DNA from: Auanema rhodensis
Lineage: Eukaryota; Animalia; Nematoda
Assembly (NCBI GenBank): GCA_964057225.1
Contig: OZ059896.1
Coordinates: 18,538,001-18,602,000, forward strand
DNA length: 64,000 bases
Direction of reading: 5' to 3'
Made by a program: the position numbers and the translations under genes
Part shown: positions 22,782 through 53,600 of the stretch, piece after piece
Position numbering within the stretch: position 1 is the stretch's first letter
How the letters are laid out: every line of letters starts with the position of its first letter
The notes under the pieces: generated by a model
Database searches by the model: none
What the model saw: only the letters and a program-made list of their open reading frames with translations
What the model was told of the DNA's origin: nothing

Positions 22782-22853
22782 CAGTTCCGCCACGATTAGA
22801 ACTCTGGTAGCAGCCTTTACAGTCCTGAGTGCTAACTCCTACACCACGGAACC
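22782..22853 (-). pseudogene. tRNA-Gln-derived pseudogene (mirror of 21273-21344)
   Basis: Reverse complement of 21273-21344. Confidence 0.8.
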
Positions 22854-23042
22854 ATTACATTTAATCAAAAAAAATCGTCGCATATTAGATTACATTCTCT
22901 TTCTTGTTCAAAATGATTGGAAACAATTATGAAACAATATGATTAAGAGGAGATATGAAGATTTTAATTTCTTTGAAGTTTGAACTCAGCTTATTGCCGT
23001 TATCCAAGTTTGGTGCTGTTGTAATGGTCAAATGAAAAAAAC

Positions 23043-24896
23043 TTCTCACTTGCAACTTTTCTTCTCACTTGCAAAAATGAATTTTCGAATTTTTTTAGCT
23101 TGCATACGGTTTCTTCTTTTATTGCTTGTAAACACACCTATTCTACTAGAAAAAATAATTTGAAACACACTCGTATGTCTCTTTACCAATACCTAAAAAG
23201 TCGCTCTGAATCTACCAAAGAACTTGGTATCGTATTGAATTTTTTACTCATGTTGAATAAATGAGTTAAATATTGTTCGCTGAACCACCAATCAATGATA
23301 TCTGTTGAGGAAGATGGTCTAGTTGTTAGTAGGAGTCCACGATACTCAGCTAATTCAGATAAAATGATGTCATTAGCTTTCAGTGGTTCTATTTGCACTA
23401 CACTGAACAAGCCTTCAGAGATGTTAGAAACATCTACAATCTCATCATTATTAGCGTTTTAGTAAAGTTCCTCTGTAACATCTTGTTCAATCAGCTTCCA
23501 TTCTTCCTCCTTGCAGATATTTGAGAACACCAGTCTCGGGTCAAAAAAAGCTCCCATTCTTCCTCCTTGCAGATATTTGAGAACACCAGTCTCGGGTCAA
23601 AAAAAGCTCCCATTTTCAAGAACTTTTCATTTTGAGTCATCTTCTTTCCGTAGTAGTTTATATGATGATAGGATATCTCCCAAAAAGTAGATTGAATATT
23701 AGATTGCACCGTGCCACTCAACCTAAATGTTCGAATTGAAACATTTATAAAAACTAATGTTTTATATTCACCTTTCCAGCTGTTTTTCTATTAGTTTACA
23801 AGATCCAAAAATAAATACAGATGTTTCTTTAGCTTTCGAAGAAATGAGAGTTCCTTCTTCAAAAATTTTAAGAACGGTCCCAACAAATTTCAAAAATTCA
23901 ATCTCAGCTTCATGAAATAATCCTTCTCCTTCTTCCTCAAAATGCAAGGAAAGTACACAACATTCAAAAAAACATCAATTTCAATAAAGTACACAATACG
24001 AAAAACGCTTACCATTTTAATAAAATGAATTATCATCTTATAACTGCTATTCCATTTAATAGAACAATCACGTACGATTTGTTCAGAGCATTCAGAATTT
24101 TTAATTTTTTCCCGTAATCGAGAACTCCTTTTGATTTTTTTTGCAAACATGCACATTTTTTCCGGAAGAGAATGAATAGGTTTCTTCTTAAATACTTGTT
24201 GAAGAACCAAGTTTGGAATATGCGGAAAACAATGAAGACTGAAAAAAGAAACAGTTAATTAAATTTGATCCAAACCTTACTATTTTTTCAGTAGAAGATC
24301 GCACGCTTTCTTAACATTTGTAGCACCGTCGGTGACACAACATATAACTTTTTTTAATAAATCTTCCCCAAGAGAACCAGCGATTTTCTCATGTATAGAT
24401 TTACCAGAATGTGAACCATTAATATCGATGATATCCCATATCAAGTTATATCTTTTCTTGGTCTTATTGTGGGGGGAATCGCGAAGAAATCGGAATCTCT
24501 GAGCAGATATTTAATTTTTGAATGAGTTTCTGAAACCAGAACAAAAGAATTAAAAAACTAATAATCAACATACCATGAGAAATTTTAATGGCAATATTAA
24601 GAACTGTTTTCCTTGACGGAACTTTATATGATGGGTTCAAACTTTTTACAATTTCATGAAGAAATTTGTTTTCAAGTGAATAAGCGGGAGCATATGACGT
24701 TGCTATATAAAGAGCAAAAAGACGATTCAATTCGGCCTGATTACATTCCTTTTTAGTAGGAAAGAATTTCGTAAGTTTTTCGGTAGAAGGCGTCTTCAAT
24801 AAAACGGTTGTCGATAATTAATTCTCATATCGATTATTCATTCAACCCTGATTATCGACTATCGTGTCGATTTGTCGATGTCGATTCCCAACTCTA
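23043..24896 (-). mobile_element. Mirror copy of the truncated hAT transposon
   Basis: Ends ...TCGATTCCCAACTCTA at 24896, the reverse complement of the terminus at 19285. Confidence 0.75.
23046..24799 (-). pseudogene. hAT transposase pseudogene (mirror copy, with 56-bp internal duplication)
   Basis: Same motifs and introns as 19382-21080; most ORF fragments are identical. Confidence 0.88.
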
Positions 24897-25229
24897 ATAT
24901 ACATATATATCGAACATAAAAAGTGCGGAAGAATCGTTATAACATTCACGTTATTTTACTGCCCAAATTTGTGTTTTTTTAAATTCAAGCCTGAGTAAAT
25001 GAGTTTTAATTTCGAATCTGGTTATTGAGAATCAAGAAAGATTTTTTTCATCTGACCACTACAACAGCACCAAACTCGGATAACAGCGATAAGCTGAGTT
25101 CAAACTTCAAAAAAGTTGAAATTTTAATATCTTCTCTTAATCATATTGTTCCAAAATTGTTTCCAATTATTTTGAACAAAAAAGAGAATAAAATCTAATA
25201 TGTGACAATTTTTTGTAATAGAATGCAGT

Positions 25230-25301
25230 AGTTCAGGGGTGTACTGGTTAGCACTTAAAATTCTAAATGCTGCGACCAAAGTTTAATTCAAAGCGGAATT
25301 T
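25230..25301 (+). pseudogene. Highly decayed tRNA-Gln-like pseudogene (mirror of 18880-18951)
   Basis: Reverse complement of 18880-18951. Confidence 0.6.
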
Positions 25302-26049
25302 TCAAGTTTTGCTTATTGTTTCGGCCGATATATGTTTCACAGATTCACTACAGTTTTCGTCCAAAACATAAGTCTTGAAGAATACCTGTATTTCACATCA
25401 TGAAGCAACATAGAACTCAAATTTTTCTTAATTAATTTGAATCGGTATATCTAATTTTTCAATATCAAAACTACAACCATATGCTAAACATGTGCAAGCT
25501 ATTCAAATGACCAAAGCCCAAACCAGTCATGCCTACAAAATGAAATACATATAATACGGGTTTATTTTTGCACTAACCCAGATCGGTTGCTTTGAAACTA
25601 TGTTAGTCTTAAATCGGTACATTCTCTATTTTATTATTTTTTTTTGTATTCTTTGTCAATGTATAACTCATACTGTGATTTCTTGTAATTTGATAATGAA
25701 TTTTTTTATCTGTTTACGTTCTTCATAAAATATCGATCGAACCAATCAGTTTTGCTCGAATAACAAAGAAGGTGAAAAAATATATACATACATTTCGAAC
25801 ATATAGTGCGGAAGAGTTGTTATATCATTACCATTATTTTACTGCCCGAATCTGTGTTTCTTAAAATTCGCACCTGACTAATGAGTTCGAGTTTCGGAAA
25901 CGGAAACCAAGTTCTCAGAAGAGGTATTTTTGATTTGTTAAATAATGCAGAATTTTCACAAAGCATGATTAGATATATTTATTTTATTTTCCATATACTT
26001 TTCATCATGATGATGTTCATTTACTTAGACTGACATTAAATTTTGAAAT

Positions 26050-26240
26050 TTTGTTTACATTTAACAGTATGTTCACAAAATTGTTAGCTGGACGGCCGAT
26101 TCAATGTTTTTTGATGTTTTTTTATTTTTGTCATTCAATTTTTTAAATATTTATCAATGTATTCAAGAAGATTCTCTAAAAGTATTCCCGAATTTAAAAG
26201 AAATGAAAGCAGGCGAACAAATTTTTACTGAGTCAAAGGA
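26050..26240 (+). repeat. Fragment of the 477-bp satellite at the outer end of the right arm
   Basis: TTGTTTACATTTAACAGTATGTTCACAAAATTGTTAGCTGGACGGCCG...; ORF 26104 begins with the satellite peptide. Confidence 0.9.
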
Positions 26241-26948
26241 AAAAAAAAACAATGAATATTTAGAAAATTATCAAACAGCAGTGAACAAGTTGAATTTCAT
26301 TCACAAACAAGATGGAGATAATTATTCTGGTTAGAACTTCTAAAGTTATTATCATTTTATCAAGATTCGAGTCTGATAGCTTCATTTCTGTTAACAACAA
26401 AAAAAAGTGAAAGTTCAACAGTTGTAGGTTCATGTGTCATAATAGACACAAGAGTTTTGCTTTGTGTATCTGAATATGTTACTCTCGTTTTAGGTGTTAG
26501 TGAAACTTTCAAGTTAGAAGCTGATCAAAAGTTAATTAAGCATTAATTACTAGATTGCGTATGTCCGTGAAAAGTTTAACAATGCTTTTAGCTGTAAAGA
26601 TTCATTTTTGTACAAAAATGAGGATCACGAAAATTGTAGTCACTATTTCAATTCATTATTTGAGAGTATGTTAGTGACAGAACCGTGAAGATTATCAGTC
26701 CACGACGGCGAAAGCAGTTTCAATAGTTACAATACGGTATTTTCAAGAGAAAGCCAATAGAAAAAATGTTTTTATAGTTCCTATTTCAAAGATGCACTAT
26801 TGATTCGCTGTGATATACATAGGATAGATAATTCGAAATATGTTCTGAAGGACGACGTGTGAGACTTTGAAACAGTTGTTATAACATTGTGGGGCAAGAA
26901 AAAAACAATATAACGTTTTGAATAAAAATAAGTAAAAGTCTTTCATAA

Positions 26949-35828: not shown

Positions 35829-37499
35829 ATGTAAATCGCATTCAAATTAGACAATTTGTATAACCCAACCCAGTAACTCATTAAAATGTAGTTGATTTTT
35901 TTTATCGATTCTAGGTCTGAAAAAATAATAATATGAAATAATACTTTTATTTTAGTACCTTATGAGAAAACCTTTGGGAAATTTTTGATACTTTCTCACT
36001 CTGAATAGGAACATTCTCGAGAATATTATCACAGCATTTGTTTTACTGCTAGTATTTTTTTCAATTGTATGAGATAATACAGAATTAAACATGTAAACTA
36101 TCAGGTAATGATTTTTTTAAAACAGAAAATAACGACCCTGGCAGGACTCGAACCTACAATCTTCGGATCCGAAGTCCGACGCCTTATCCATTAGGCCACA
36201 AGGCCATGTAAATCGCATTCTAATTAGACAATTTGTATAACCCAACCCAGTAACTCACTAAAATGTAGTTGATTTTTTTTATCGATTCTAGGTCTGAAAA
36301 AATAATAATATGAAATATTATTTTTATTTTAGTACCTTATGAGAAAACCTTCGGGAAATTTTTGATACTTTCTCACTCTGAATAGGAACATTTTCGAGAA
36401 TATTATCACTGCATTTGTTTTACTGCTAGTATTTTTTTCAATTGTATGAGATAATACAGAATAAAACATGTAAACTATCAGGTAATGATTTTTTTGAAAC
36501 AAAAAATAACGACCCTGGCAGGACTCGAACCTACAATCTTCGGATCCGAAGTCCGACGCCTTATCCATTAGGCCACAAGGCCATGTAAATCGCATTCAAA
36601 TTAGACAATTTGTATAACCCAACCCAGTAACTCATTAAAATGTAGTTGATTTTTTTTATCGATTCTAGGTCTGAAAAAATAATAATATGAAATAGTACTT
36701 TTATTTTAGTACCTTATGAGAAAACCTTCGGAAATTTTTTGATATTTTCTCACTCTGAATAGGAACATTCTCGAGAATATTATCACTGCATTTGTTTTAC
36801 TGCTAGTATTTTTTTCAATTGTATGAGATAATACAGAATAAAACATGTAAACTATCAGGTAATGATTTTTTTAAAACAGAAAATAACGACCCTGGCCGGA
36901 CTCGAACCTATACAAATTGTCTAATTTGAATGCGATTTAGATGGCCTTGTGGCCTAATGGATAAGGCGTCGGACTTCGGATCCAAAGATTGTAGGTTCGA
37001 GTCCTACCAGGGTCGTTACTTTTTGTTTTAAAAAAATCATTACCTGATAGTTTACATGTTTTATTCTGTATTATCTCATACAATTGAAAAAAATACTAGC
37101 AATAAAACAAATGCAGTGATAATATTCTCGAAAATGTTCCTATTCAGAGTGAGAAAATATCAAAAATTTCCCGAAGGTTTTTTCATAAGGTACTAAAATA
37201 AAAGTATTATTTCATATTATTATTTTTTCAGACCTAGAATCGATAAAAAAATCAACTACATTTTAGTGAGTTACTGGGTTGGGTTATACAAATTGTCTAA
37301 ATTGAATGCGATTTAGATGGCCTTGTGGCCTAATGAATAAGGCATTGGACTTCGGATCCGAAGATTGTAGGTTCGAGTCCTGCCAGGGTCGTTATTTTTT
37401 GTTTCAAAACAATCAATACCTGATAGTTTACATGTTTTATTCTGTATTATCTCATACAATTGAAAAAAATACTAGCAATAAAACAAATGCAGTGATAAT

Positions 37500-37607
37500 A
37501 TAAAACATGTAAACTATCAGGTAATGATTTTTTTGAAACAAAAAATAACGACCCTGGCAGGACACGAACCTACAATCTTCGGATCCGAAGTCCGACGCCT
37601 TATCCAT
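37500..37607 (-). repeat. Local ~108-bp inverted insert of tRNA 3' part + trailer (second copy 38339-38446)
   Basis: ATAAAACATGTAAACTATCAGG...CGACCCTGGCAGGACACGAACC...CCTTATCCAT replaces ~20 bp of spacer inside a plus-strand unit. Confidence 0.92.
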
Positions 37608-38620
37608 CAGAGTGAGAAAATATCAAAAATTTCCCGAAGGTTTTCTCATAAGGTACTAAAATAAAAGTATTATTTTATATTATTATTTTTTCAGACCTAG
37701 AATCGATAAAAAAATCAACTTCATTTTAGTGAGTTACTGGGTTGGGTTATACAAATTGTCTAATTTGAATGCGATTTAGATGGCCTTGTGGCCTAATGGA
37801 TAAGGCGTCGGACTTCGGATCCAAAGATTGTAGGTTCGAGTCCTACCAGGGTCGTTACTTTTTGTTTTAAAAAAATCATTACCTGATAGTTTACATGTTT
37901 TATTCTGTATTATCTCATACAATTGAAAAAAATACTAGCAATAAAACAAATGCAGTGATAATATTCTCGAAAATGTTCCTATTCAGAGTGAGAAAATATC
38001 AAAAATTTCCCGAAGGTTTTCTCATAAGGTACTAAAATAAAAGTATTATTTCATATTATTATTTTTTCAGACCTAGAATCGATAAAAAAATCAACTACAT
38101 TTTAGTGAGTTACTGGGTTGGGTTATACAAATTGTCTAATTTGAATGCGATTTAGATGGCCTTGTGGCCTAATGAATAAGGCATTGGACTTCGGATCCGA
38201 AGATTGTAGGTTCGAGTCCTGCCAGGGTCGTTATTTTTTGTTTCAAAACAATCAATACCTGATAGTTTACATGTTTTATTCTGTATTATCTCATACAATT
38301 GAAAAAAATACTAGCAATAAAACAAATGCAGTGATAATATAAAACATGTAAACTATCAGGTAATGATTTTTTTGAAACAAAAAATAACGACCCTGGCAGG
38401 ACACGAACCTACAATCTTCGGATCCGAAGTCCGACGCCTTATCCATCAGAGTGAGAAAATATCAAAAATTTCCCGAAGGTTTTCTCATAAGGTACTAAAA
38501 TAAAAGTATTATTTTATATTATTATTTTTTCAGACCTAGAATCGATAAAAAAATCAACTTCATTTTAGTGAGTTACTGGGTTGGGTTATACAAATTGTCT
38601 AATTTGAATGCGATTTACAT

Positions 38621-38693: not shown

Positions 38694-39129
38694 TTATTTT
38701 TTGTTTCAAAAAAATCATTACCTGATAGTTTACATGTTTTATTCTGTATTATCTCATACAATTGAAAAAAATACTAGCAGTAAAACAAATGCAGTGATAT
38801 TTATCTCGAGAATGTTTCTATTCAGAGTGAGAAAATATCAAAAATTTTCCGAAGGTTTTCTCATAAGGTACTAAAATAAAAGTATTATTTCATATTATTA
38901 TTTTTTCAGACCTAGAATCGATAAAAAAATCAACTACATTTTAGTGAGTTACTGGGTTGGGTTATACAAATTGTCTAATTTGAATGCGATTTACATGGCC
39001 TTGTGGCCTAATGGATAAGGCGTCGGACTTCGGATCCGAAGATTGTAGGTTCGAGTCCTGCCAGGGTCGTTATTTTTTGTTTCAAAAAAATCATTACCTG
39101 ATAGTTTACATGTTTCATTCTGTATTATC

Positions 39130-39487
39130 CGTTCCGTTATGCTCCCGCGTCGATCTTACAGACCAATGGAGTCTACAAGATGAGCGTGGTAGTATTCCAG
39201 ATGTAGCGGTTAAACATGGAGCATAAGGATAAACATAAGACTCGAGAAAGATTGGTTTATTATATCTACGTGATTACAATAAGATACATATAACTAAGTA
39301 AAGGTTAAACTAATAGAGAACAGAGAGAGAACGACCAACCATCCATGATCGTCCCTGAGGCAAAGCTGAAGTGTTGTAATATGGAAAAGGGCGGGTCGTC
39401 TTCTCTCAGTCTCGCATTCTCTGACTCTAACCCGCCTGCTACAGCTTCGTCATATGAATGTAATGCATTGATCATTCGAATGGAACG
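39130..39487 (-). repeat. 3' LTR (358 bp)
   Basis: CGTTCCGTT...AATGGAACG; three substitutions found relative to 50258-50615. Minus-strand TATATA (39287-39292) and AATAAA (39256-39261). Confidence 0.97.
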
Positions 39488-39489
39488 TG

Positions 39490-39498
39490 CCCTTTTTC
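39490..39498 (-). promoter_or_regulatory. Putative polypurine tract
   Basis: Minus strand GAAAAAGGG-CA immediately precedes the 3' LTR; short. Confidence 0.55.
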
Positions 39499-40030
39499 GA
39501 GTTTATGTCGCGTCCTCGCGACAATCAAAAGTTTTGACTTGAACAACTGTAGCAGAAGGGTTAATGTGTGTATTAAAGTACATGAAAATATACTTATAAA
39601 ATAATAATAAAAAAGTTTTTAAGTATAACGCTCTAACAAGTGTAGACAAAAAGTTAACTATTTTTTTGCTAGAGCTCGGTTGTTTGTTTCAATTTGTGTG
39701 AGTTTAGAAAAAAAAAGAAAAGTTTTGCGTAATACCAAATAACTTCCAAATTGAGTCATTGATTACTCAAGTGAAGACTGTTGCTCAGATATTGTTGCAA
39801 ACTATGTCTTTCATTTTTCATCTCATCTAGTATGGGGAAGTTAGTTGAAATTAGGAAGGTTCGAACTATATGATAAAGAATTATCTTCTCACATTTCCCG
39901 TGTTCATTATGCTCTAGTTTACTTTTTGACTTAAGAGTGACTTGTTTTAGAGGACTCGTTACAAAATTTGTGTTCTAGTATTACTTTAAAGAAAGTTATT
40001 ACAAAACAATTTACAATAAAATCTCATGAG

Positions 40031-42667
40031 TTAATGGTTTTTTCTTGATGGTAGCCAATTTGTATCCGAAAGGTCTTCTGGTTCGTCATAAGAGTCTTCA
40101 TCGTTGTTGTTTCCGTTGATAACCTCTATGATTTCAATATCGCTGTCATCGTCTGAGCTGTCTGTACGTGTACTGGGCTTATGTGCGATTCCGTCATCTG
40201 TTTCTCGATTAAATAATTTGAGATTGTCCTTGTGAACGTCTTGGATCTTTCCGAAAAGGTTTTTGATTTGAACCATGTTTCCCTTCACATTAATAACTTC
40301 AAATGGTCCATCATAAGCTTTCCGAAGCTTTTGTCCTGGCTTGTGCATTTTCACAGCTAACATAACGCAGTCTCCTTCTTGTATATCTCTTTCGTGAGTG
40401 CGTAATCGAGCATCATGTTTCTTTTTTGCTAATTCTTGATGCTTTTCCAAATTTTCTTGAATGATTGTTTTCTGTTTGCTTCGGATTTTCTCAATATTTT
40501 CAATCTCCTTTGAAATTTCCTTTGGTTCAGTTGTTTCGGGGTATAAATCTTTATCCAATCTCAAACGGCTTTCTTTCCCGAATAGTACAACGTATGGTGA
40601 TATTCCTGTGGTTGCATGCGTTGTGGTGTCCAATGCAAAGGTAATTTTTGGCAAAAACATGTCCCAATCAGTGACATCTTCGTTGAGATAATGTGTGAGT
40701 TCTTCTTCTAACGTTCTATGAAGTCTTTCTACTTGTCCATTGGAATTCTTCTGATGTGGGAGTGTTGATTCATGTTTGATACCGAGTTTTTCGCACATGT
40801 CTTCAAATTTCCTTGATAGGAAGTTGGAACCGCGGTCTGTTATTAAGCGATTCGGTGGTCCATAGACATATACAAAGTTTCTGAGGAATCTATCAATGAC
40901 AACTTCACTAACAATTGTTGGTATGGCGATAGTTGTAGCCCATTTGGAGAAAGAGTCTTGTATTGTGAGGACATAGCTGTTGTTCCTTTTTGATGTTGGG
41001 AATGGTCCCATGATATCCATATGTATTCTCTCAAATGGTTTTGTTGGTATGTTAAATTGACCCATTGGTTGTACGGTCATAGCATGAGGATCTTTCTTTC
41101 GTTGTGCACATTTGATGCACTGTTTTACGTATTTTGCTATGTCGTTCTGCATGTTAGTCCAGGAAAATCTTCGTAATATGGCTTCTTTTGTTTTGTTGAT
41201 TCCTTGATGCGCCCCGATTGTTGGGTCTTCATGAAATTCTTCAATGATTTTGTTAATTATATCACTATCCGATGGCAATATTAACGCTGGATGAGGTCTT
41301 TTGACGCTTGGTTTTGTGTAGAGTAAGTTGTTTATAACACAATAACGATCATTTTGAATCATATTTTTCTTCGTTCTGTATTCAATCTCAGCTATTGTTC
41401 TCTTGATCCAAGGAGTATTTTGTTGGATTGAGCTGAATTCTGGTAACTTCACAACATTTACTTGTTGTGTCTCAATTTTCTCTTTCGAATTCGTCTTTTG
41501 TTTCTTGTTCGACGTCTTTGGATCGTTAGCTTCATCTCCAATGTATCTAGAGAGTGCGTCACAGACTTTGTTTAATCTGCCTTCTCGATATTTGATCTCA
41601 ATATCGTATTCCTGTATGACCAATTGGAACTTTGCTAGTCTTCCAAATAGGTCTCTTCTAGTTAGTAAGCTTGTCAATGAGCGATGATCGGTGATGCAAA
41701 TTGAATGTGATCCAAGTATGTATGTTCGAAACTGTGCTAGAGCGTAAACTAAGCCTAAGGCTTCTATCTCTATGGGAGCATAGTTACGTTCTGCTTTTAC
41801 TAATTTCCTACTTGCGAAAGCAATTGGATGTAAGTTCTTGAATGGTTCGTTTGGATCTTCGGGCTGCAGTAATACTGCGCCTATGGCGATGTTGCTGCCA
41901 TCACTTTCAATGATGAAAGTTCGGTCTGATCGTGGTGGTTTCAGTACCGGTGCTTCGATTAGTCGTTCCTTTAGCTTATCTAGTGAACGTTGACATTCGC
42001 TAGTCCAATTGAAGTCTGCGTCTAGCTTAGTAAGGTCATACAGCGGACTTGCTATATGTGCAAAATCTTTAATAAATTTTCTAAAGAATCCGACCATTCC
42101 TAAGAATGCTCTTACTCCTGTGGGTGTTTGAGGAGCAGGGTAATCGCGGATGGCGGAAACTTTCTGTTGATCGGGCTTAACTCCGTCTCTTCCGACAATG
42201 AGTCCGAGAAATTTCACTTCTGGTCTTGCAAATGAACATTTCTTGAGTTTAATCTTAAATCCTAGTCTTTCTACAGCGAGTAATACTTCTTTGATGTCTT
42301 TGAGGTGTTGTTCTGCGCTGTCTGATATGACTAGTAAATCGTCCAAATAGACAAATAGTCGGCATTTACATTTACTTTGGAGATATCTCACGGCTGTTTG
42401 AAAGGTATGTGGCGCACCACATAATCCCATAGGCATTCTCCTGTATTGATAAGTCCCACTATTGGTGGTAAAGAATGTGAGTGGTCTATCCTTCTTCGAT
42501 AATGGTATTTGGAAAAAGCCAGAAACAAGATCAAAATTAGAAAAGTATTGTGATCCAGCCGCTAAGTCAATGATATCAGAGATGTTAGGAATCACATATG
42601 TTTGTTTTCTTGTAACGTTATTTAAGGCTCGGAAATCCGTAACGAAACGGAATGTTTCGTCTTTTTT
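40031..42667 (-). CDS. Pol C-terminal part: reverse transcriptase, RNase H, integrase (third segment of the single frame)
   Basis: KKDETFRFVTDFRALN, FDLVSGFFQI, MPMGLCGAP, YLDD (42338-42349). RNase H IIESDGS..IGAVL, IEALGL, TDHRSL. Integrase zinc finger H..H..CIKC, HMDIMGP / ITDRGSNF / VERLHRTL (DDE), GPF motif, acidic tail. Confidence 0.96.
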   Translation of the reverse strand, partial: KKDETFRFVTDFRALNNVTRKQTYVIPNISDIIDLAAGSQYFSNFDLVSGFFQIPLSKKDRPLTFFTTNSGTYQYRRMPMGLCGAPHTFQTAVRYLQSKCKCRLFVYLDDLLVISDSAEQHLKDIKEVLLAVERLGFKIKLKKCSFARPEVKFLGLIVGRDGVKPDQQKVSAIRDYPAPQTPTGVRAFLGMVGFFRKFIKDFAHIASPLYDLTKLDADFNWTSECQRSLDKLKERLIEAPVLKPPRSDRTFIIESDGSNIAIGAVLLQPEDPNEPFKNLHPIAFASRKLVKAERNYAPIEIEALGLVYALAQFRTYILGSHSICITDHRSLTSLLTRRDLFGRLAKFQLVIQEYDIEIKYREGRLNKVCDALSRYIGDEANDPKTSNKKQKTNSKEKIETQQVNVVKLPEFSSIQQNTPWIKRTIAEIEYRTKKNMIQNDRYCVINNLLYTKPSVKRPHPALILPSDSDIINKIIEEFHEDPTIGAHQGINKTKEAILRRFSWTNMQNDIAKYVKQCIKCAQRKKDPHAMTVQPMGQFNIPTKPFERIHMDIMGPFPTSKRNNSYVLTIQDSFSKWATTIAIPTIVSEVVIDRFLRNFVYVYGPPNRLITDRGSNFLSRKFEDMCEKLGIKHESTLPHQKNSNGQVERLHRTLEEELTHYLNEDVTDWDMFLPKITFALDTTTHATTGISPYVVLFGKESRLRLDKDLYPETTEPKEISKEIENIEKIRSKQKTIIQENLEKHQELAKKKHDARLRTHERDIQEGDCVMLAVKMHKPGQKLRKAYDGPFEVINVKGNMVQIKNLFGKIQDVHKDNLKLFNRETDDGIAHKPSTRTDSSDDDSDIEIIEVINGNNNDEDSYDEPEDLSDTNWLPSRKNH

Positions 42668-45568
42668 CTAAACGAGAACGACAGGGCTGTTGAACAAAGA
42701 TGTCGATCGTTCTATTATCCCTTGCTCGAGCATTTCTTGGAATTGTCTTTCTACCTCTTCCTGTTTCCCGAGAGGTATACGTGAAATTCGTGGCTTTGGC
42801 ATATCCATATCCGTTCGTAGTGGTATCTTGTGTTCTACTGGTCCTTTGAACAATCCTATCTTTTTATCTTCATTGAGGAATGCCTTCTTACGTTGACGAA
42901 TGATGTTTCGTAGTTCGTCTTTTTGTCGTTGCGTGAGATCAGCCTCTTTTAGGTCAAGTTCTTTCATGAAATCACCAGGGAAGTGAGGTAATTTGCCTTC
43001 CCAGTCTGCTTCTGGTGGAATATAGTCGTACTGTTGTTCTGTTGAGAAGATTTCATAGTCCGGTATAGATCCTATTTCGGCTTCTGCAATTACAGTGCCG
43101 GCCGGTATTTCTATGAATTCTTTAGAATTGTTCCGGAATTGGATATTGATGGAGTTAACATCGCGAAATGCTGTGTCGTATCGAGGTGAGAGAGGTTTAT
43201 TGTCGTTTGGTTTAATCATAGCGATTAAGTCTTCTCCGATTGGGTTCTCTAATTGGACTTGGAAATTAAAAACTTGTCGTGGAAGTAGACTCCGCGGTTC
43301 CAAGGTTATCAAATTAACAGTTTTTGATATCCTGTTAATATCCCCGTTAATTCCGCTAGCCAAAGGTACTACATGATTTCCAATTTCCAGTGTTCTTTTG
43401 TATGGTCTTAGTTTCATGCCAATGTTTTGACAGTCAAGTGTTTTCATGAAATCTAATCCAATCAACGCTGGCGATGGACAGTCTTTGTCGTCTGATATGA
43501 AGAATGTATGGTCGATTTCGTAACCGGCTATTTCGACGGTTAAGTCGATAGTACCAATGAATACAAATTCTGATCCGTTCGCTGTTGTTGCTCTTAATGT
43601 ATTCTTCTTAACAAAGTCATTCAAAGCTAAGTAGTGTAGTGTCGATATTCTTATGTAACTGACGGACAAACCTGAGTCCCATAAAGTTAGGATCAGTCTA
43701 TCGTTAACAGTCATCCATAGAAGTGGTAGTGCTTGATCTTTCTTTTTGGAAATCGAGCAAACTAATGGTAGTGCAATTGGTATGAATGTGAGCATTGATG
43801 GATAGTATTGTTTCATTATGTGTCTTGGAATCGGTTGGTCCGGATGACTAACTAATTCCAAAGTTTCTTCGTATGTTGGTAGATCACTGTCGTGATCTTT
43901 GAGTGCAATATGCATAACTGGTATGCCTACTGGTTTGAAGAAATAGATCTTTACAATGAAACCTATCACAAAGAGTATGATGGTAAATAATGTAATTGCA
44001 CCGATCGTTATTAGTGTTCGCTCAATCGTTCCTGCAATTGTATCGATGAATGACTTCCATGTGCTCTTGGTGAATTCTTGAGCTTTCGATATGTAGTCGC
44101 TACTTTTCTTTAGTACACTGAATGTAGCTGATATCTTTGGATCATTGTGAATTGTGTGAAGAACGTGATTCTGACGAATCGATGCTAAACTCGCACCGTA
44201 AGCTATGGCTGTGGTCATTGAGTATACACGAGACGATAAATTAGTGTATAAGTGAGCTCCGGTGAATTTTAATGGTGTTATTTTTTCGTGATGAAGTCCG
44301 TCCCACATTGATACAAGACTGACGTCTGCAGTCCCATTAATTCCTTTCCATTCACCTTCGCTAGACCAGATATCTGTTGGTACGTGATCACAGCTTATTT
44401 CTTTACCATGAGGTAAAAGATCCTTGGATCCGGGTGCTGCAAACAGTAACTGTCCGTCTTGTGTCCAGACTGGGGTTTCGAGATAGCATGTGCCATTTAC
44501 GGTGTGATTGTGATAAATGGTTTTCTCTAGCACTGTAGGGCATACATGTATATGCAAAATTTCATTGCCTACAAACCGTGCGGCTATATCTTCTCTTCCC
44601 AGTATTGTTCGCATTGCGATTGTTGGTTCAATTTGTAGAATTGATTTCCATAATTCCAGATACCGATTTTGTATCTCGCAAATCGATTCGTATGATTCTT
44701 CAAAATGTTTCTGCAATTCCTCTTGGATCATTGTAGTAGCATACTGTAAATGATCTTGGGCTATTTTGTTCGATATATTTTGACGAAACTCTTGTACCGA
44801 GTCAATTTTCGTTGCTATGTATCTCGCATTTGCTTCCACTAAATTTGAGGTTTCTACTGATGGTGTTGAGGAAGATCGGTTTTTTCGAATCAATGTTGGA
44901 GAGGCTTCGGTTGTCTCTTGTATTTTTGGAATCTGTGCGTCTTTGTATATGGCATAGCTTCTTGTTGTTGTTGGCGAACGAGCGGTTGATGTTGTTGTGC
45001 GTGCTGTTGTCGCAGCGGTCGTGTGAGGCGCCGTTGTTGATGGCTGTTGCCTCCATGATGGTGCTCTTGTGGTGGTTGTTGCATTTGTGTGAGGATTGTT
45101 CGTTATATGCGGCTGTATTGTGGTAACTGATTGGATTGTTCCCTTCTGTTCGATCAAAGGTTGGACTGGTGTCACAACCGCGCCGCTAGCCGCGCCGCCT
45201 GCAGCGACGCTAGCCGCGCCGCCTGCCGCGACGCTGGATGTCCGCGTTGCGATTTGCCGAAAATTTGTTTCATTTTCCTCTGCCATTAAGATTTGAAGTT
45301 GTTCTTGTGTTATCCTACTTGATGTATAAGGTGTTTTTACATTATTGAGCAGGGGTAAAAATATTTCCAATAATAATTTCTTTGAAAGATTGCTGGGCTT
45401 GATCAGCTTAGGGTGTGGACCGATCGGTATTCCATAATTATTCTTCCTGTCATAAAATAGTTTATCTGTATTTGGCATGAATTGTCGTGATGCTGGCAAT
45501 TTTATAAATTTTCTGTCATCAATAAATGCTGCAGTTTTATTCCATCGTACTGTTGTGAGGGTTTTTAG
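42668..45568 (-). CDS. Env C-terminal half (mucin-like tract, gB/chuvirus-G-like core, TM) fused in frame to aspartic protease and RT N-terminus
   Basis: Thr-rich tract; HLQY...ICEIQ...LWKSILQIEPT..MRTILGREDIAARFVGNEILHIHVC...TCYLETPV matches the herpes gB domain III/IV pattern (QLQF..WC..Q..LW....INP....GR.V.AR.LGDV...C...CYSRP). TM LITIGAITLFTIILFVIGFIV (~43940-44014); protease LWDSG (43670-43684) and LIGLDFM; ends SPVVLV-TAG. Confidence 0.88.
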   Translation of the reverse strand, partial: LKTLTTVRWNKTAAFIDDRKFIKLPASRQFMPNTDKLFYDRKNNYGIPIGPHPKLIKPSNLSKKLLLEIFLPLLNNVKTPYTSSRITQEQLQILMAEENETNFRQIATRTSSVAAGGAASVAAGGAASGAVVTPVQPLIEQKGTIQSVTTIQPHITNNPHTNATTTTRAPSWRQQPSTTAPHTTAATTARTTTSTARSPTTTRSYAIYKDAQIPKIQETTEASPTLIRKNRSSSTPSVETSNLVEANARYIATKIDSVQEFRQNISNKIAQDHLQYATTMIQEELQKHFEESYESICEIQNRYLELWKSILQIEPTIAMRTILGREDIAARFVGNEILHIHVCPTVLEKTIYHNHTVNGTCYLETPVWTQDGQLLFAAPGSKDLLPHGKEISCDHVPTDIWSSEGEWKGINGTADVSLVSMWDGLHHEKITPLKFTGAHLYTNLSSRVYSMTTAIAYGASLASIRQNHVLHTIHNDPKISATFSVLKKSSDYISKAQEFTKSTWKSFIDTIAGTIERTLITIGAITLFTIILFVIGFIVKIYFFKPVGIPVMHIALKDHDSDLPTYEETLELVSHPDQPIPRHIMKQYYPSMLTFIPIALPLVCSISKKKDQALPLLWMTVNDRLILTLWDSGLSVSYIRISTLHYLALNDFVKKNTLRATTANGSEFVFIGTIDLTVEIAGYEIDHTFFISDDKDCPSPALIGLDFMKTLDCQNIGMKLRPYKRTLEIGNHVVPLASGINGDINRISKTVNLITLEPRSLLPRQVFNFQVQLENPIGEDLIAMIKPNDNKPLSPRYDTAFRDVNSINIQFRNNSKEFIEIPAGTVIAEAEIGSIPDYEIFSTEQQYDYIPPEADWEGKLPHFPGDFMKELDLKEADLTQRQKDELRNIIRQRKKAFLNEDKKIGLFKGPVEHKIPLRTDMDMPKPRISRIPLGKQEEVERQFQEMLEQGIIERSTSLFNSPVVLV

Positions 45569-48500
45569 TTATCTTAGTAAATTGATCGTTGCCTTAATGA
45601 ATTCGCTTTTCTTCTCTTCCTCGTCAGTTAGTATACGTTTCCTTATTGGTGGCATTTGTATGAACGTTTGTAGGACTTCTTGTCGTGATGGAACTGTCAG
45701 TCCTTCTTCAATTATAACTGGTGTATTGGTTAAATTGAGAGCTATGCTTTCAATTCGTTCGCGATATGAACCTTCTTTCTTCCTTATGATTTCATCGAAT
45801 TCGATTACTGTCAAACGATCTGATATTTGTTCGAGAAGCTGTTCAGATGTTAAGTATGATATTGCTGCCTTTGTAGTAATGGCTAATTCTCTTTGTGCTA
45901 TATAATATAGCAGAGCTTCTTCTTTATCACTGAAATCGTATTGTTTGAGAAAATGTCGAACAGAATGTTCATTTATTTGAATTCTGAAGAAAAATTCGAA
46001 TTTTTCTTTATGTGATGTTATCCATGCCTTTAGAGAGTATGTTGGATCTACTAAACGTCTTCCTTTGATTATAGGAATAATTGAAGTAATACCGGGATTA
46101 CTCATTAATGGTCTTAGGAAAGAATATGGACAGACGTGAAGCAATACTGTTTCATAATCTTCAACTTCGTTGATCCGATCTTGATCCAGTGGGAAAGAAC
46201 ATCCTTCGGTGACTGCACGTTTTGGTCTTTTAAACGGCAGCTTTTTGAACTCTCTTTCAATAAGGGTGGTTATATTGTTGTCGTTTGGAAATTTAGAAAG
46301 AATGATATAATTTCCTGATGTCGTATGGAACGCTAGCTGCCTGAAGCAAGAAGAAATAGGTTTCGGAGTTGGTTTGCTCGAAAGAATAAGTGCCGATTGT
46401 GTACTAGGGATTAAAATAGTATCTTGACTAATGATAGCGTCATATGTATGCATATCGATGTAATTACAACGTGAAGCAGTGGTTTGTGGGTCCCATATTA
46501 TTATTGATGTACTTGATTCACAATTACCATGATGTGCATTGCATCCTTCCGTGTTTAATATTAAGTTTGACAATATTGTATCGTCAGGCATACGGGTCAT
46601 GACTCCGCGCTCTAATATTAGACGTGACCGCTCCTCGCACGCGTCGCGGTTGAACGCGCGCGCTGGGTCATAGGAGGGCTCCGGAGTTGCTTGGGTGATA
46701 CTATCAATGCGTTGCAGTTCCATGTTATTCCACTTGCGATCGCGGATCGCCTGTCTGCATTCGCGCTCTCCTATAGGCTGTATTCTATTTATTGTTCTGT
46801 TCGTATCGCGGAGGAATAGCAGGTCTCGTACGCATAACTTGTGTACTTCCTCTGAACAACGCCACGCATCCCATTCGTGTGCTGTGTGATTTCTTGTGTA
46901 CAGATGACCTTCTGTACGTAGCACATGGTTTTTCTCTGTTAATCTGCATTTTCTGATTGTTGGTGGCATAAGTAATGCGCCTCCTGTTGCTCTTGTACAG
47001 ATTTGATATGTAGATGCACAGTGCAAGAATATTGCTGCTGTTATTGCCATGATAACTGTGAGCGTCAAAGGCGAAAGGGTGACAGAGTTTATTCTTGTTG
47101 AGCTTCTATCTCTTCCTCTTGAGTTGTCTCTTGGATTTTTGAATTGAACTCTTCTTTGTCCGTTGTTGTTATTGAATCTACCTCGTTGGTTGTTATGACG
47201 AAAATTATAATTTCTTTGATGCCAATCAGAACTCGATTGCCTATTATCTTGTTCGTTATAATTTGTACGGCGATTATTATTAGCGAAAGAACCGTAACGG
47301 TTTCGATTATTATTGAAATTAGAAAAGTTTTTATTTTTTTGATAATTTTGATTATTTTGATAATTTTGATTATTTCTTATCATTTGGTTATCGCGTTGAT
47401 AATTGCGATTAAATGTTTGGCTATCTCGTCTCTCATCATTACGCGCAAAGGGTGCTAGTGCTTTGTTCACAGCGTTGACCAACATCGATTGCGTGTCTGT
47501 TGTTTGGTTCACTATCGATTCCTCCCAGCGAGCTGCTTCAATCGCTTCTGTGAAGGATTTTGGCTTTGCTCGGATCACAGCTGGTTTTAGAGAATTTTTA
47601 AGTCCTCTGAGGAATGTTGATCTCAGTATTTGATCTTTATGTGGGTCATCAGATGCAAATGCACTCAATGCCATTGTTCTTAATGCTTGGGCGTATGCAT
47701 CAATTGTCAATTCCCCTTGCGTGGTGTTTTGAAGGTTAATAAGTGCAGGGTCTTGGTTATATTCAGGGCAGAGCTTCGATGTTAGTGCTCTAATCAGATC
47801 ATTCCACGAACCAGTTGTTTTAAGTTGTTCAGGAACTTGTCTGTAAGCTTCTTCTGCTGCTTCATTTTTGAGAAGCAAAGGAAGAAGTGCTAACCTTTCA
47901 GGGATAATAAGGCCAATGGCATTAGCAAACAAGTTGAATTTACCCGTAAAATCACGGAAGTTACGACTGCCGTCGTAAGTTGGACAGTAAGGCGAAAGTA
48001 AGGCTTGCGCGATTGTTGTTTTCCCTGCCCCAGGTAGTGAGGAAACAGCTTCCGTCATGATGTTATTCGTACGGGTAGATGGTATTTTGATCGTTCTACC
48101 TGTTATTGGTGGGGTCTCCAAAATAGGGGTTGTTTGCGTGGATGGAATAGGTCTATTGGGTGCCTTAGGAAGTGAGTCTGTTGTTGTTAAGATGGGAGTA
48201 GAAGTTTGATGAATACTGGTATTTGGTGCAGGTGGTTGAATTGGTGAGATATTAATGTTAGGGACTGATGAATATCTGCTTTTGCGCTTGGTGTTGAAAG
48301 TTTTATCTTTAGGCGAAAGGTTAAAAAGATCAGTAACAATGTTTCTAAGAGAACTAAGCCCACCCGCGCTAGAAGTTTTTGAAAATAAAGGGGAATCGGT
48401 TGGTTCGGTTAGTGAGAGAGAGAGAGAAGCGTCGCTGATGTTTTGATTTTTCTTATTTTTATTAGAATTAGAGGAGCGTACCTTTTTAGGAGTGATCGGT

Positions 48501-48751
48501 GTTTGTTCCTCCACAATGATTGATAGTTCTTCTTCTATAGTAGGTACGTAGTCCGGGTCGCCTAGTTGTTCAGTAGGTGAGACAGAATCAGTAGTAGGAA
48601 TAAGGAAATTATCCGGCTTCTTGTCGACTTTCTGCTCCTCTTCTAATATAGCGACGTCTTGAGCTCGAGCTCGACTTCTGGTAAAGGGAGCTGAGTCTTG
48701 GGAATCGAAATGCGTACTTATAGGTACGGCTGAATGGAATCTCTTAGCCAC
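45569..48751 (-). CDS. Gag (capsid + N/Q/R-rich region) fused via internal signal peptide to Env N-terminal half
   Basis: Ty3-type capsid motifs YDGS..F..F, WNDLIRAL, QGELTIDAY, FLRGL, FTEAIEAA. No CCHC knuckle. Hydrophobic VTLSPLTLTVIMAITAAIFLHCAST (47009-47083), then a Cys-rich ectodomain with N-x-S/T sequons and furin site KRPKR (46217-46231). The track start is GTG; the first ATG is at 48058. Confidence 0.87.
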   Translation of the reverse strand: MAKRFHSAVPISTHFDSQDSAPFTRSRARAQDVAILEEEQKVDKKPDNFLIPTTDSVSPTEQLGDPDYVPTIEEELSIIVEEQTPITPKKVRSSNSNKNKKNQNISDASLSLSLTEPTDSPLFSKTSSAGGLSSLRNIVTDLFNLSPKDKTFNTKRKSRYSSVPNINISPIQPPAPNTSIHQTSTPILTTTDSLPKAPNRPIPSTQTTPILETPPITGRTIKIPSTRTNNIMTEAVSSLPGAGKTTIAQALLSPYCPTYDGSRNFRDFTGKFNLFANAIGLIIPERLALLPLLLKNEAAEEAYRQVPEQLKTTGSWNDLIRALTSKLCPEYNQDPALINLQNTTQGELTIDAYAQALRTMALSAFASDDPHKDQILRSTFLRGLKNSLKPAVIRAKPKSFTEAIEAARWEESIVNQTTDTQSMLVNAVNKALAPFARNDERRDSQTFNRNYQRDNQMIRNNQNYQNNQNYQKNKNFSNFNNNRNRYGSFANNNRRTNYNEQDNRQSSSDWHQRNYNFRHNNQRGRFNNNNGQRRVQFKNPRDNSRGRDRSSTRINSVTLSPLTLTVIMAITAAIFLHCASTYQICTRATGGALLMPPTIRKCRLTEKNHVLRTEGHLYTRNHTAHEWDAWRCSEEVHKLCVRDLLFLRDTNRTINRIQPIGERECRQAIRDRKWNNMELQRIDSITQATPEPSYDPARAFNRDACEERSRLILERGVMTRMPDDTILSNLILNTEGCNAHHGNCESSTSIIIWDPQTTASRCNYIDMHTYDAIISQDTILIPSTQSALILSSKPTPKPISSCFRQLAFHTTSGNYIILSKFPNDNNITTLIEREFKKLPFKRPKRAVTEGCSFPLDQDRINEVEDYETVLLHVCPYSFLRPLMSNPGITSIIPIIKGRRLVDPTYSLKAWITSHKEKFEFFFRIQINEHSVRHFLKQYDFSDKEEALLYYIAQRELAITTKAAISYLTSEQLLEQISDRLTVIEFDEIIRKKEGSYRERIESIALNLTNTPVIIEEGLTVPSRQEVLQTFIQMPPIRKRILTDEEEKKSEFIKATINLLR

Positions 48752-50244
48752 CTTGCTAGAACTCTTGGTTTGAAAAAACCTTGAGTGCTTGGTAACGTGT
48801 GGGATGTTGAGACGTTAAAGAATGCGGTGAATAAGGATGAGGATGTAGGCAAAATGAGAAAGGCTTTGGAGAGCGACCGGTGTCGTATCGACAACTTGTG
48901 AGAATGAGGTCGATGCCTTGGCCAATGGCGATGGATCCGCCTTCTACTGTGTGATATCGGGACTCTGGTGCTCTCCGTATTTTCTCTGTAGTTGACAATC
49001 TGATTCACAAAACATCTGGGGTGACCAAGCTGTTATTTTACAAAACGTTTAGTGTAATTCGTAATATTCGTTCAATTACAGCACATTTTACTGATTTGTA
49101 TGCAACCATTTTCCTCATGCTAACTAAACTTATGTTTTGTTACACTAGTTTCTCGACCATGTGGTGTGTCATCTTGCAACAAAACTTATGGTGTAATTCG
49201 TAACATGCTTTTGATAAAAGAGCAGTTTAACAATAAATGTGCACCAATTTCTCTTTTGTGACCAAAAATAATTTTTGTTTCTTTACAATCTGGTTTTCAA
49301 ATACATTTGGTGTAGCTCGCATGTTTCGTTGTAACAAAAGTCATGGGATTCGTAATATTAGTTTTACAAAAGAGCGTTTCGCAATGATGAATGTAGGTAT
49401 TTCGTGATCAGAAATCGAATTTTTAAATAAAAGCAGAGTTAAATGGCTAAATATTACAAGAACTAGTATTAAAGTTGGAATAAGGTTCAATGCGTGAGTC
49501 TTATGCTTCTGAACAACAATAACGGTATGAGGAAGGTGACATTCAGTAAGGGGAGAAAATCCAAACCGATATGCTTTAGCCAACACGACCTGTGTTAATC
49601 ATGATTCAAATTCGAGATAACATTTTTCAACAGGATTTTTCGGACTATAGCGATCTATGAATTAACAATCCTCCCTTTTTGGTGAGGTTTCCCGTGTAAT
49701 TTTTTTCATGCGTACTGATTATAAATTTAGGATGTTAGAAGCAAAATTTGTCTGAACGAAATCGTAACGCAAAATAAAATAGTCCTGATCGCAAAACAAA
49801 CTTCATCCACGAAATATAAAGATATAACCGAAGTTATTCTTTCCTTGAAGCCAAAATTAATCCTTAAAAAGGAGAAGGCGTGGGAAATACAAATTAACAA
49901 TTACTTTAGGTGAATTTGTTCACTAATTCAGCCTAAAGCCCTCATCAAGCTTCAAGGTTGGGTAACAGAGCATTTCAGATGTTATAAGCAAGGATACGAA
50001 ATTTAAAGGTTCAGACGAATGAATTTTTGTGAACAAACGGGAAAATAATAATCTCGAAACGTATAATCCTTCTTTAAAAAAAAAGGATTCCTTGCCTCTG
50101 TTCCCATTTAACGTTGTTGGCCCCTCCGTATTGTGTTAAGACATAGAGTAGATGGTATGAGAAAAAGAGAGATGAAAGAAATTTGAAGATGAATTAACAA
50201 CACAAACATTAAAGAGAAGGAAAAAAAAATTGTGATAAGTTCGA

Positions 50245-50257
50245 GGTGGAACCTCCA
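50245..50257 (-). promoter_or_regulatory. Primer binding site for tRNA-Gln
   Basis: Minus strand TGGAGGTTCCACC directly abuts the 5' LTR. It is complementary to GGTGGAACCT-CCA, the 3' end of metazoan tRNA-Gln (13 nt). Confidence 0.9.
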
Positions 50258-50615
50258 CGTTCCGTTATGCTCCCGCGTCGATCTTACAGACCAATGGAGT
50301 CTACAAGATGAGCGTGGTAGTATTCCAGATGTAGCGGTTAAACATGGAGCATGAGGATAAACATAAGACTCGAGAAAGATTGGTTTATTATATCTACGTG
50401 ATTACAAAAAGATACATATAACTAAGTAAAGGTTAAACTAATAGAGAACAGAGAGAGAACGACCAACCATCCATGATCGTCCCTGAGGCAAAGCTGAAGT
50501 GTTGTAATATGGAAAAGGGCGGGTCGTCTTCTCTCAGTCTCGCATTCTCTGACTCTAACCCACCTGCTACAGCTTCGTCATATGAATGTAATGCATTGAT
50601 CATTCGAATGGAACG
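50258..50615 (-). repeat. 5' LTR (358 bp)
   Basis: Direct repeat of 39130-39487, adjacent to the PBS. Confidence 0.97.
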
Positions 50616-53600
50616 ATACTAGCAGTAAAACAAATGCAGTGATAATATTCTCGAAAATGTTCCTATTCAGAGTGAGAAAGTATCAAAAATTTCCCGAAGG
50701 TTTTCTCATAAGGTACTAAAATAAAATTATTATTTCATATTATTATTTTTTCAGACCTAGAATCGATAAAAAATATCAACTACATTTTAGTGAGTTACTG
50801 GGTTGGGTTATACAAATTGTCTAATTAGAATGCGATTTACATGGCCTTGTGGCCTAATGGATAAGGCGTCGGACTTCGGATCCGAAGATTGTAGGTTCGA
50901 GTCCTGCCAGGGTCGTTATTTTTTGTTTCAAAACAATCAATACCTGATAGTTTACATGTTTTATTCTGTATTATCTCATACAATTGAAAAAAATACTAGC
51001 AATAAAACAAATGCAGTGATAATATTCTCGAAAATGTTCCTATACAGAGTGAGAAAATATCTACAATTTCCCGAAGGTTTTCTCATAAGGTACTAAAATA
51101 AAAGTATTATTTCATATTATTATTTTTTCAGACCTAGAATCGATAAAAAAAATCAACTACATTTTAGTGAGTTACTGGGTTGGGTTATACAAATTGTCTA
51201 ATTTGAATGCGATTTAGATGGCCTTGTGGCCTAATGGATAAGGCGTCGGACTTCGGATCCGAAGATTGTAGGTTCGAGTCCTACCAGGGTCGTTATTTTT
51301 TGTTTTAAAAAAATCATTACCTGATAGTTTACATGTTTTATTCTATATTATCTCATACAATTGAAAAAAATACTAGCAGTAAAACAAATGCAGTGATATT
51401 ATTCTCGAGAATGTTCCTATTCAGAGTGAGAAAATATCAAAAATTTTCCGAAGGTTTTCTCATAAGGTACTAAAATAAAAGTATTATTTCATATTATTAT
51501 TTTTTCAGACCTAGAATCGATAAAAATATCAACTACATTTTAGTGAGTTACTGGGTTGGGTTATACAAATTGTCTAATTTGAATGCGATTTACATGGCCT
51601 TGTGGCCTAATGGATAAGGCGTCGGATTTCGGATCCGAAGATTGTAGGTTCGAGTCCTGCCAGGGTTGTTATTTTTTGTTTCAAAACAATCATTACCTGA
51701 TAGTTTACATGTTTTATTCTGTATTATCTCATACAATTGAAAAAAATACTAGCAGTAAAACAAATGCAGTGATAATATTCTCGAAAATGTTCCTATTCAG
51801 AGTGAGAAAGTATCAAAAATTTCCCGAAAGTTTTCTCATAAGGTACTAAAATAAAAGTATTATTTCATATTATTATTTTTTCAGACCTAGAATCGATAAA
51901 AAAAATCAACTACATTTTAGTGAGTTACTGGGTTGGGTTATACAAATTGTCTAATTTGAATGCGATTTAGATGGCCTTGTGGCCTAATGGATAAGGCGTC
52001 GGACTTCGGATCCGAAGATTGTAGGTTCGAGTCCTACCAGGGTCGTTATTTTTTGTTTTAAAAAAATCATTACCTGATAGTTAACATGTTTTATTCTGTA
52101 TTATCTCATACAATTGAAAAAAATACTAGCAGTAAAACAAATGCAGTGATATTATTCTCGAGAATGTTCCTATTCAGAGTGAGAAAATATCAAAAATTTT
52201 CCGAAGGTTTTCTCATAAGGTACTAAAATAAAAGTATTATTTCATATTATTATTTTTTCAGACCTAGAATCGATAAAAATATCAACTACATTTTAGTGAG
52301 TTACTGGGTTGGGTTATACAAATTGTCTAATTTGAATGCGATTTACATGGCCTTGTGGCCTAATGGATAAGGCGTCGGATTTCGGATCCGAAGATTGTAG
52401 GTTCGAGTCCTGCCAGGGTTGTTATTTTTTGTTTCAAAACAATCATTACCTGATAGTTTACATGTTTTATTCTGTATTATCTCATACAATTGAAAAAAAT
52501 ACTAGCAGTAAAACAAATGCAGTGATAATATTCTCGAAAATGTTCCTATTCAGAGTGAGAAAGTATCAAAAATTTCCCGAAAGTTTTCTCATAAGGTACT
52601 AAAATAAAAATATTATTTCATATTATTATTTTTTCAGACCTAGAATCGATAAAAAATATCAACTACATTTTAGTGAGTTACTGGGTTGGGTTATACAAAT
52701 TGTCTAATTTGAATGCGATTTAGATGGCCTTGTGGCCTAATGGATAAGGCGTCGGACTTCGGATCCGAAGATTGTAGGTTCGAGTCCTACCAGGGTCGTT
52801 ATTTTTTGTTTTAAAAAAATCATTACCTGATAGTTAACATGTTTTATTCTGTATTATCTCATACAATTGAAAAAAATACTAGCAGTAAAACAAATGCAGT
52901 GATATTATTCTCGAGAATGTTCCTATTCAGAGTGAGAAAATATCAAAAATTTTCCGAAGGTTTTCTCATAAGGTACTAAAATAAAAGTATTATTTCATAT
53001 TATTATTTTTTCAGACCTAGAATCGATAAAAATATCAACTACATTTTAGTGAGTTACTGGGTTGGGTTATACAAATTGTCTAATTTGAATGCGATTTACA
53101 TGGCCTTGTGGCCTAATGGATAAGGCGTCGGATTTCGGATCCGAAGATTGTAGGTTCGAGTCCTGCCAGGGTTGTTATTTTTTGTTTCAAAACAATCATT
53201 ACCTGATAGTTTACATGTTTTATTCTGTATTATCTCATACAATTGAAAAAAATACTAGCAGTAAAACAAATGCAGTGATCATATTCTCGAAAATGTTCCT
53301 ATTCAGAGTGAGAAAGTATCAAAAATTTCCCGAAAGTTTTCTCATAAGGTACTAAAATAAAAATATTATTTCATATTATTATTTTTTCAGACCTAGAATC
53401 GATAAAAAATATCAACTACATTTTAGTGAGTTACTGGGTTGGGTTATACAAATTGTCTAATTTGAATGCGATTTAGATGGCCTTGTGGCCTAATGGATAA
53501 GGCGTCGGACTTCGGATCCGAAGATTGTAGGTTCGAGTCCTACCAGGGTCGTTATTTTTTGTTTTAAAAAAATCATTACCTGATAGTTAACATGTTTTAT

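Follow-up and report, generated by a model that had tools for sequence, protein, structure and literature searches.

The 64,000-nucleotide (nt) stretch of the nematode Auanema rhodensis analyzed here (assembly GCA_964057225.1, contig OZ059896.1, positions 18,538,001 to 18,602,000 of the forward strand; hereafter the window) contains, at 39130-50615, a long terminal repeat (LTR) retrotransposon on the minus strand, which is inserted among tandemly repeated tRNA-Arg(TCG) genes (27193-64000; 377-nt unit, 63 genes called). Its two LTRs, the 5' copy at 50258-50615 and the 3' copy at 39130-39487, are 358 nt each and differ at 3 positions. On the plus strand both copies start CGTTCCGTT and finish AATGGAACG (CGTTCCATT...AACGGAACG in the orientation of the element); that is, CG...CG instead of TG...CA is found at all four ends. 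An earlier reading of the same DNA without database searches (the sequence-only reading) had described such ends with an inverted repeat of 8/9, and both LTR copies confirm this: the terminal inverted repeat is 6/6 and then 8/9, while matches of 8/9 occurred in only 89 of 400,000 random pairs of 9-mers drawn from the LTRs and 62 of 400,000 drawn from the whole element. At the insertion site the tRNA-Arg array would continue with T beyond the left flank, and its right flank would be preceded by A or, in a minority of units, by C. Thus, the C and the G at the termini come from the element, as had been claimed and as both window junctions show.

The internal neighbors of the LTRs place the boundaries at the same bases. 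The primer-binding site (50246-50257, minus strand; complement GTGGAACCTCCA) matches tRNA-Gln at 12/12 positions: according to supplement 1 of PMC13524379, this tRNA ends with the 12 nt GTGGAACCTCCA. TGGAGGTTCCAC follows the U5 CG directly and without a spacer, in agreement with the sequence-only reading that the primer site abuts the terminal base. At the other end, the U3 CG is preceded by the polypurine tract GAAAAAGGG plus CA (39488-39498, minus strand). With these inner neighbors the inverted repeat becomes two bases longer, by CA|CG on the side of the purine tract and by CG|TG on the side of the primer site. A boundary moved inward (GT...AC) or outward (CA...TG) was rejected, since each LTR copy has the C and the G, and the extra bases are missing from the host flanks. 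Internal TG and CA were rejected as ends as well: the nearest TG starts at base 14, the last CA ends 10 nt before the end and the junctions fit neither.

Between the LTRs a single reading frame runs from 48814 to 40031 on the minus strand and is interrupted by two in-frame stops. Segment 1 (45569-48814) encodes Gag, with a capsid-like part at amino acids 310-440 and its first Met at 48058, and the N-terminal part of the envelope protein, and ends at the in-frame stop at 45569-45571. Segment 2 (42668-45568) encodes the C-terminal part of a class III (Monjiviricetes/herpes gB-like) fusion protein, a hydrophobic stretch, an aspartyl protease (PR) and the start of the reverse transcriptase (RT), and terminates at the in-frame stop at 42668-42670. 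Segment 3 (40031-42667) encodes RT (YLDD), RNase H (RH) and integrase (IN; HHCC, D551-D611-E647, GPF at amino acid 787). The gene order is therefore GAG-ENV-POL, with PR-RT-RH-IN as the order in Pol. The capsid matched PF19259 with an E value of 5e-5, which is below the curated cut-off, and PF03732 above the cut-off; the envelope matched PF24664 (E value of 4.8e-13) between the Gag and protease matches, and the best match among solved structures was Ty3 Gag-Pol. No Gag knuckle of either kind was found in the element. The three segments are colinear with the single long proteins P0126, P0128, P0129 and P0141. Six relatives read through the position of the RT stop without interruption, with a gap of one codon there, and P0135 spans the region of the first stop; programmed read-through at the two stops is therefore unlikely. 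The window copy, with its two in-frame stops, is likely inactive. The untranslated leader from the primer site to the open frame is 1.4 kb (48815-50245). The polyprotein also contains low-complexity stretches at 45100-45250 and 47300-47400 (Ala/Gly/Thr-rich, Asn/Gln-rich), and its envelope region is longer than those of the Caenorhabditis relatives.

The nearest named proteins are from Heterorhabditis, Caenorhabditis, Diploscapter and Auanema (40-61% identity), and several of them are single Gag-Env-Pol proteins; the Pol part is 43-48% identical to proteins of Caenorhabditis, Diploscapter and Heterorhabditis. Phylogenetic analysis was based on RT-RNase H and the integrase core (613 columns) of 50 of the 240 stored proteins, comprising most of the named nematode matches with an integrase core and a sample of the others, and used IQ-TREE in fast mode with the Shimodaira-Hasegawa-like approximate likelihood ratio test (SH-aLRT) and a midpoint root. 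The window element grouped with 10 rhabditid proteins (SH-aLRT of 98.2) inside a nematode clade (SH-aLRT of 100), and hence with nematode envelope-carrying elements. Searches for the DNA around relatives yielded only distant elements, which were one locus in viral contigs (31%), 16 in metagenome contigs (22-35%) and one short match at chance level in genome contigs. As a control, the U5 end could be read by the same self-comparison in 4 of the 18 distant gypsy loci, and all 4 ended in CA; the other 14 had no usable pair. In viral contigs a 17-nt pattern of the junction was matched 3 times, but in no case was the sequence around the match related to the element.

The sequence-only reading had proposed the flanks of other copies as a check on the boundary, and public sequencing runs provided two such flanks. 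Eleven of the 14 runs listed contain at least half of the element's words, and the contigs of six of these 11 were compared with the element; no RNA run was listed as containing it, which carries no information on expression. A host flank common to runs X1 and X10 ends exactly before CG at the end equivalent to 39130, as does another host flank shared by X2 and X4, and one X1 contig spans the host flank, the whole LTR and the purine tract. Thus, three insertion sites (the window, X1/X10 and X2/X4) agree to the base on the U5 boundary, and none of the three U5-side host flanks begins like the primer site. An X3 contig begins one letter before CG, without a flank, while the LTR contig listed for X9 loses the match 40 nt inside the end and is uninformative. 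For the U3 end, the right junction of the window (50615-50622) is the sole host junction seen. A diverged relative at approximately 4 times the depth of the element (X2 and X3) matches from 39477 through the U3 end as far as the purine tract, and CG is not among its listed substitutions; three 31-nt X4 contigs match 50246-50272 without mismatch and then diverge. Short contigs of high depth over the primer junction, which have 1-3 mismatches at positions not given, were excluded from the evidence for CG. Much deeper short contigs also match the LTR parts 50278-50410 and 39150-39280 at approximately 90%, which suggests that the same organisms contain a related LTR family or repeat in large numbers.

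Relative to the right junction, the left junction of the window (39123-39130) lacks 17 nt of the 377-nt array unit and shows no duplication. Neither the missing duplication nor the loss of 17 array bases was mentioned in the sequence-only reading. Outward of the element, CG|AT is found at 3 of the 4 host junctions, the exception being this left junction; the absence there of the CG|AT common to the other three suggests that the left junction of the window is a secondary one. It should be noted that two of the three insertion sites lie beside tRNA-like genes. The insertion in the X1/X10 flank ends 5 nt from what looks, by an A-box pattern, like the 5' end of a tRNA gene; the X2/X4 flank matches nothing in the window. 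Precise, Ty3-like targeting to the start of tRNA genes was not supported, as the nearest tRNAs to the window site are 60 nt away on the preceding side and 227 nt away on the following side.

The catalytic triad of the integrase (D551, D611 and E647, with a spacing of 35) is intact and is followed by the GPF motif, and its alignment to the integrase of prototype foamy virus (PFV) is gap-free across the active-site loop. The sequence-only reading had proposed to compare the residues around the helix of the catalytic Glu with CA-specific integrases. This helix is ordinary: His at E+3 is present in 102 of 212 other integrases and was therefore discarded as a specificity change. The unusual change is found in the loop before the helix, where a Lys codon (40748-40750, minus strand) occupies the position of PFV Pro214 (E-7), so that the loop starts with Lys-Asn here and with Pro-Gln in PFV. 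Among the 240 stored proteins 234 could be aligned, of which 213 fall outside the nematode branch, 212 of these with the catalytic Glu aligned. The proline at E-7 is kept in 204 of the 212, and one of the 8 exceptions is misaligned. In contrast, Lys or His occupies E-7 in the window element and in all 12 of its 12 rhabditid relatives; the other nine proteins of the nematode branch have Pro in 5 cases and lack it in 4 (P0151, P0155, P0164, and P0240). Pro214-Gly218 of PFV are inserted like a wedge between the two strands of the DNA end in the intasome, where they stack on an adenine, and the scissile dinucleotide runs over Pro214 (PMC6784120; PMC3395085). The change from Pro to Lys at E-7 may allow the use of a terminal G. 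This link between CG ends and the loop is a correlation within one family.

The surroundings of the insertion show other irregularities. The tRNA-Arg array switches strand near 36900 (region 36869-38460), and two array units of 463 nt hold a short inverted copy of the tRNA and spacer, which is a sign of local rearrangement adjoining the insertion. A palindrome of approximately 8.3 kb (17940-26241), with arms of approximately 3.9 kb that are 97.6% alike and identical over their outer 2.56 kb, lies between the tRNA array and a satellite with units of 451/477 nt (200-17550), for which no Rfam match at the gathering score was found.

CG...CG ends as such, which the sequence-only reading had implied to be novel, have already been described in approximately 600 LTRs of Troyka (PMC12440569), and Drosophila errantiviruses also lack TG...CA (PMC5408687). 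In Troyka (Kuafuorterviruses; Kojima, 2025; PMC12440569), 573 of 603 LTRs start with CGCCA and 522 end with TGGCG. Troyka elements have 3-nt target-site duplications and a CX2CX8-10HX4C knuckle, lack an envelope and GPF/Y, and occur in aquatic hosts with no nematode listed, and their Pol is placed outside Metaviridae (PMC12440569). The window element resembles them in its CG...CG ends, in LTRs within 100-400 nt and in the order of RP-RT-RH-IN. In contrast, its terminal pentamers are CGTTC/GAACG, and it has an envelope and GPF but no knuckle. The window element is therefore likely to be Troyka-like at its ends without being a member, with CG ends of independent origin, to judge from these features. 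With Metaviridae (Ty3/gypsy) it shares PR-RT-RH-IN, a Ty3-type capsid, D-D(35)-E and GPF, whereas the typical TG...CA ends of that family, to which there are described exceptions, are absent. At the one complete site no target-site duplication of any length was found, be it the 3 nt of Troyka or the 4-6 nt of Metaviridae.

Nematode GAG-ENV-POL elements are reportedly known since the work of Sacco et al. in 2022. Such elements with an ENV of the HSV/gB type have been described as ancient errantiviruses (Chary and Hayashi, eLife 2026; PMC13524379), and the window element resembles them in gene order, in the class III envelope between gag and pol, in the tRNA-Gln primer site abutting the LTR and in size. 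Among 30 of the 36 nematode rows of supplement 1, 8 rows are Caenorhabditis Gln primer sites, of which 6 abut the LTR and 2 overlap it by 1 nt. The words 'dinucleotide', 'TSD' and 'target site' do not occur in the main text of PMC13524379, which gives no terminal bases of LTRs. Unlike these elements, the window copy carries two in-frame stops. The Drosophila errantiviruses gypsy, ZAM and Idefix are also envelope-carrying Metaviridae with LTRs other than TG...CA, but theirs are AGT...AnT (PMC5408687; PMC3601003), and they carry the envelope gene downstream of pol and have integrases without GPY/F. In plants, seven types of non-TGCA LTRs have been described in which the first T is invariable (LTR_retriever, 10.1101/137141). 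Although they likewise show that departures from TG...CA exist and are under-annotated, most of them are copia elements that keep the first T, while the window element starts with C and is changed symmetrically. A literature search, most of it at the level of listings, showed no earlier mention of CG ends for gypsy elements or for nematodes, but Sacco 2022, Brown 1999 or Repbase may contain one; passages of PMC11673190 (on Troyka) and PMC12859917 added nothing on nematodes, and a term search of PMC5408684 gave no match. The layout and the CG ends are each known, in different groups; what appears to be new is that they occur together, and that the integrase loop is changed along with them.

We consider it likely that this is an envelope-carrying Ty3/gypsy element, probably rhabditid, whose own DDE integrase joins a CG-3' end, and that this specificity arose independently of Troyka. 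With tRNA-Gln and the purine tract as primers, reverse transcription would yield DNA whose ends depart only at the outermost base from TGTT...AACA, the general pattern of LTR ends (PMC3601003), with the penultimate C retained and the terminal A changed to G. Removal of a TG dinucleotide from each end before joining would fit the two-base extension of the inverted repeat, as would blunt ends and coincidence. The integrase of the element would then join the CG-3' ends to host DNA, and the Lys-Asn start of its loop may permit the terminal G. Since U3 and U5 are copied into both LTRs at every cycle of reverse transcription, the presence of CG at four ends and three sites means that CG-ended DNA was inserted repeatedly. 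The loss of 17 nt and the missing duplication would probably reflect a secondary event at the left junction, which could be a repair deletion ending at the LTR, a recombination between two array insertions or an uncoordinated joining, known with altered ends to give deletions in retroviruses (PMC2857682). The earlier claim that the integrase accepts CG-3' at both ends is thus supported for U5, where three flanks and the internal junctions agree and the triad is intact, but is putative for U3, which is represented by one host junction, at an insertion without duplication.

Several observations weigh against this interpretation. No target-site duplication of 3-6 nt was found at the boundary of the window element, even when this was moved by as much as 3 nt in either direction, and because this is the only site with both flanks, the normal concerted product has never been observed. 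Nor was a second host junction at the 50615 (U3) end found among the displayed pieces of the six runs. The loss of the proline may be unrelated to CG, given the four nematode-branch proteins and the 8 of 212 exceptions that lack it, and the loop of the window integrase has two further private changes, at E-9 and E-8. The evidence on DNA ends is limited to a single family and to near relatives of it in the same runs. Finally, the tree was built without Troyka sequences or the named elements of PMC13524379, so that independence from Troyka rests on the features and on the placement among gypsy-type proteins.

Some of these observations would also be expected if the CG ends were real but a quirk of a small family, in which a recent change from A to G at both ends is tolerated by an ordinary integrase with sloppy joining, and the loss of the proline is unrelated. 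The sole insertion seen in full has the 17-nt deletion without duplication, altered retroviral ends are known to lead to uncoordinated integration with deletions (PMC2857682), and the evidence is confined to the one family and its close relatives. We regard such a quirk as unlikely, although it is the least improbable of the alternatives, as the diverged and more abundant relative appears to retain CG at its U3 end, the change is symmetric at both ends within an inverted repeat of 8/9 and the same base is used exactly at three separate insertions. The small deletion and missing duplication at the window site are also what an insertion by host recombination without integrase might leave, in which case the terminal bases would be uninformative about the specificity of the integrase. 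An integrase-independent route is known for Tf1, but it makes use of flanks similar to the primer site or leaves the ends truncated (PMC11042837), whereas the three flanks here stop at the exact terminal base, none of them is primer-site-like and the triad is intact; we therefore give this explanation little weight.

Two further explanations appear more remote still. The element could be a member of Troyka, or have ends or an integrase derived from Troyka, with an acquired envelope gene, and the terminal dinucleotides, the length of the LTRs within 100-400 nt and the order of the Pol domains are indeed the same (PMC12440569). Such an origin is highly improbable in view of the CGTTC/GAACG ends in place of CGCCA/TGGCG, the GPF and envelope, the lack of a CX2CX8-10HX4C knuckle, an internal part of 10.8 kb as compared with at most 7.7 kb in Troyka, the absence of nematodes from the Troyka host list and the grouping of integrase and RT with nematode gypsy-type proteins. 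That the boundary is an artefact of assembly or of its delimitation is hardly credible. The tandem array around the site is indeed rearranged, and scattered differences separate the window copy from the public contigs, but CG is present in both LTR copies and in contigs assembled independently in five runs (X1, X2, X3, X4, and X10) of three studies.

If the element is a Ty3/gypsy element whose integrase joins CG ends, as we consider likely, the finding bears on a CA-3' end that has been regarded as near-invariant for LTR integrases and on CG...CG as a proposed marker of Troyka. If such ends occur in a true Ty3/gypsy element, CG...CG alone is not diagnostic of Troyka. The expectation of the sequence-only reading that LTR finders based on TG...CA would miss the family holds for motif-bound tools, with which annotation will drop or mis-trim CG-ended families in nematode genomes, but not for detection in general, as a self-BLAST pipeline has already found relatives (PMC13524379). 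The changed loop, which contacts the DNA end, provides a testable link between integrase sequence and end specificity. More tentatively, and with doubt prevailing, the whole rhabditid clade of envelope-carrying gypsy elements may have switched from CA to CG, with the switch encoded by the loss of the loop proline (Pro214, replaced by Lys or His). If this were true, the change from A to G at the reactive end would, together with Troyka, represent a repeated, convergent escape from the CA rule, and these elements would form a natural series for asking why integrases require CA.

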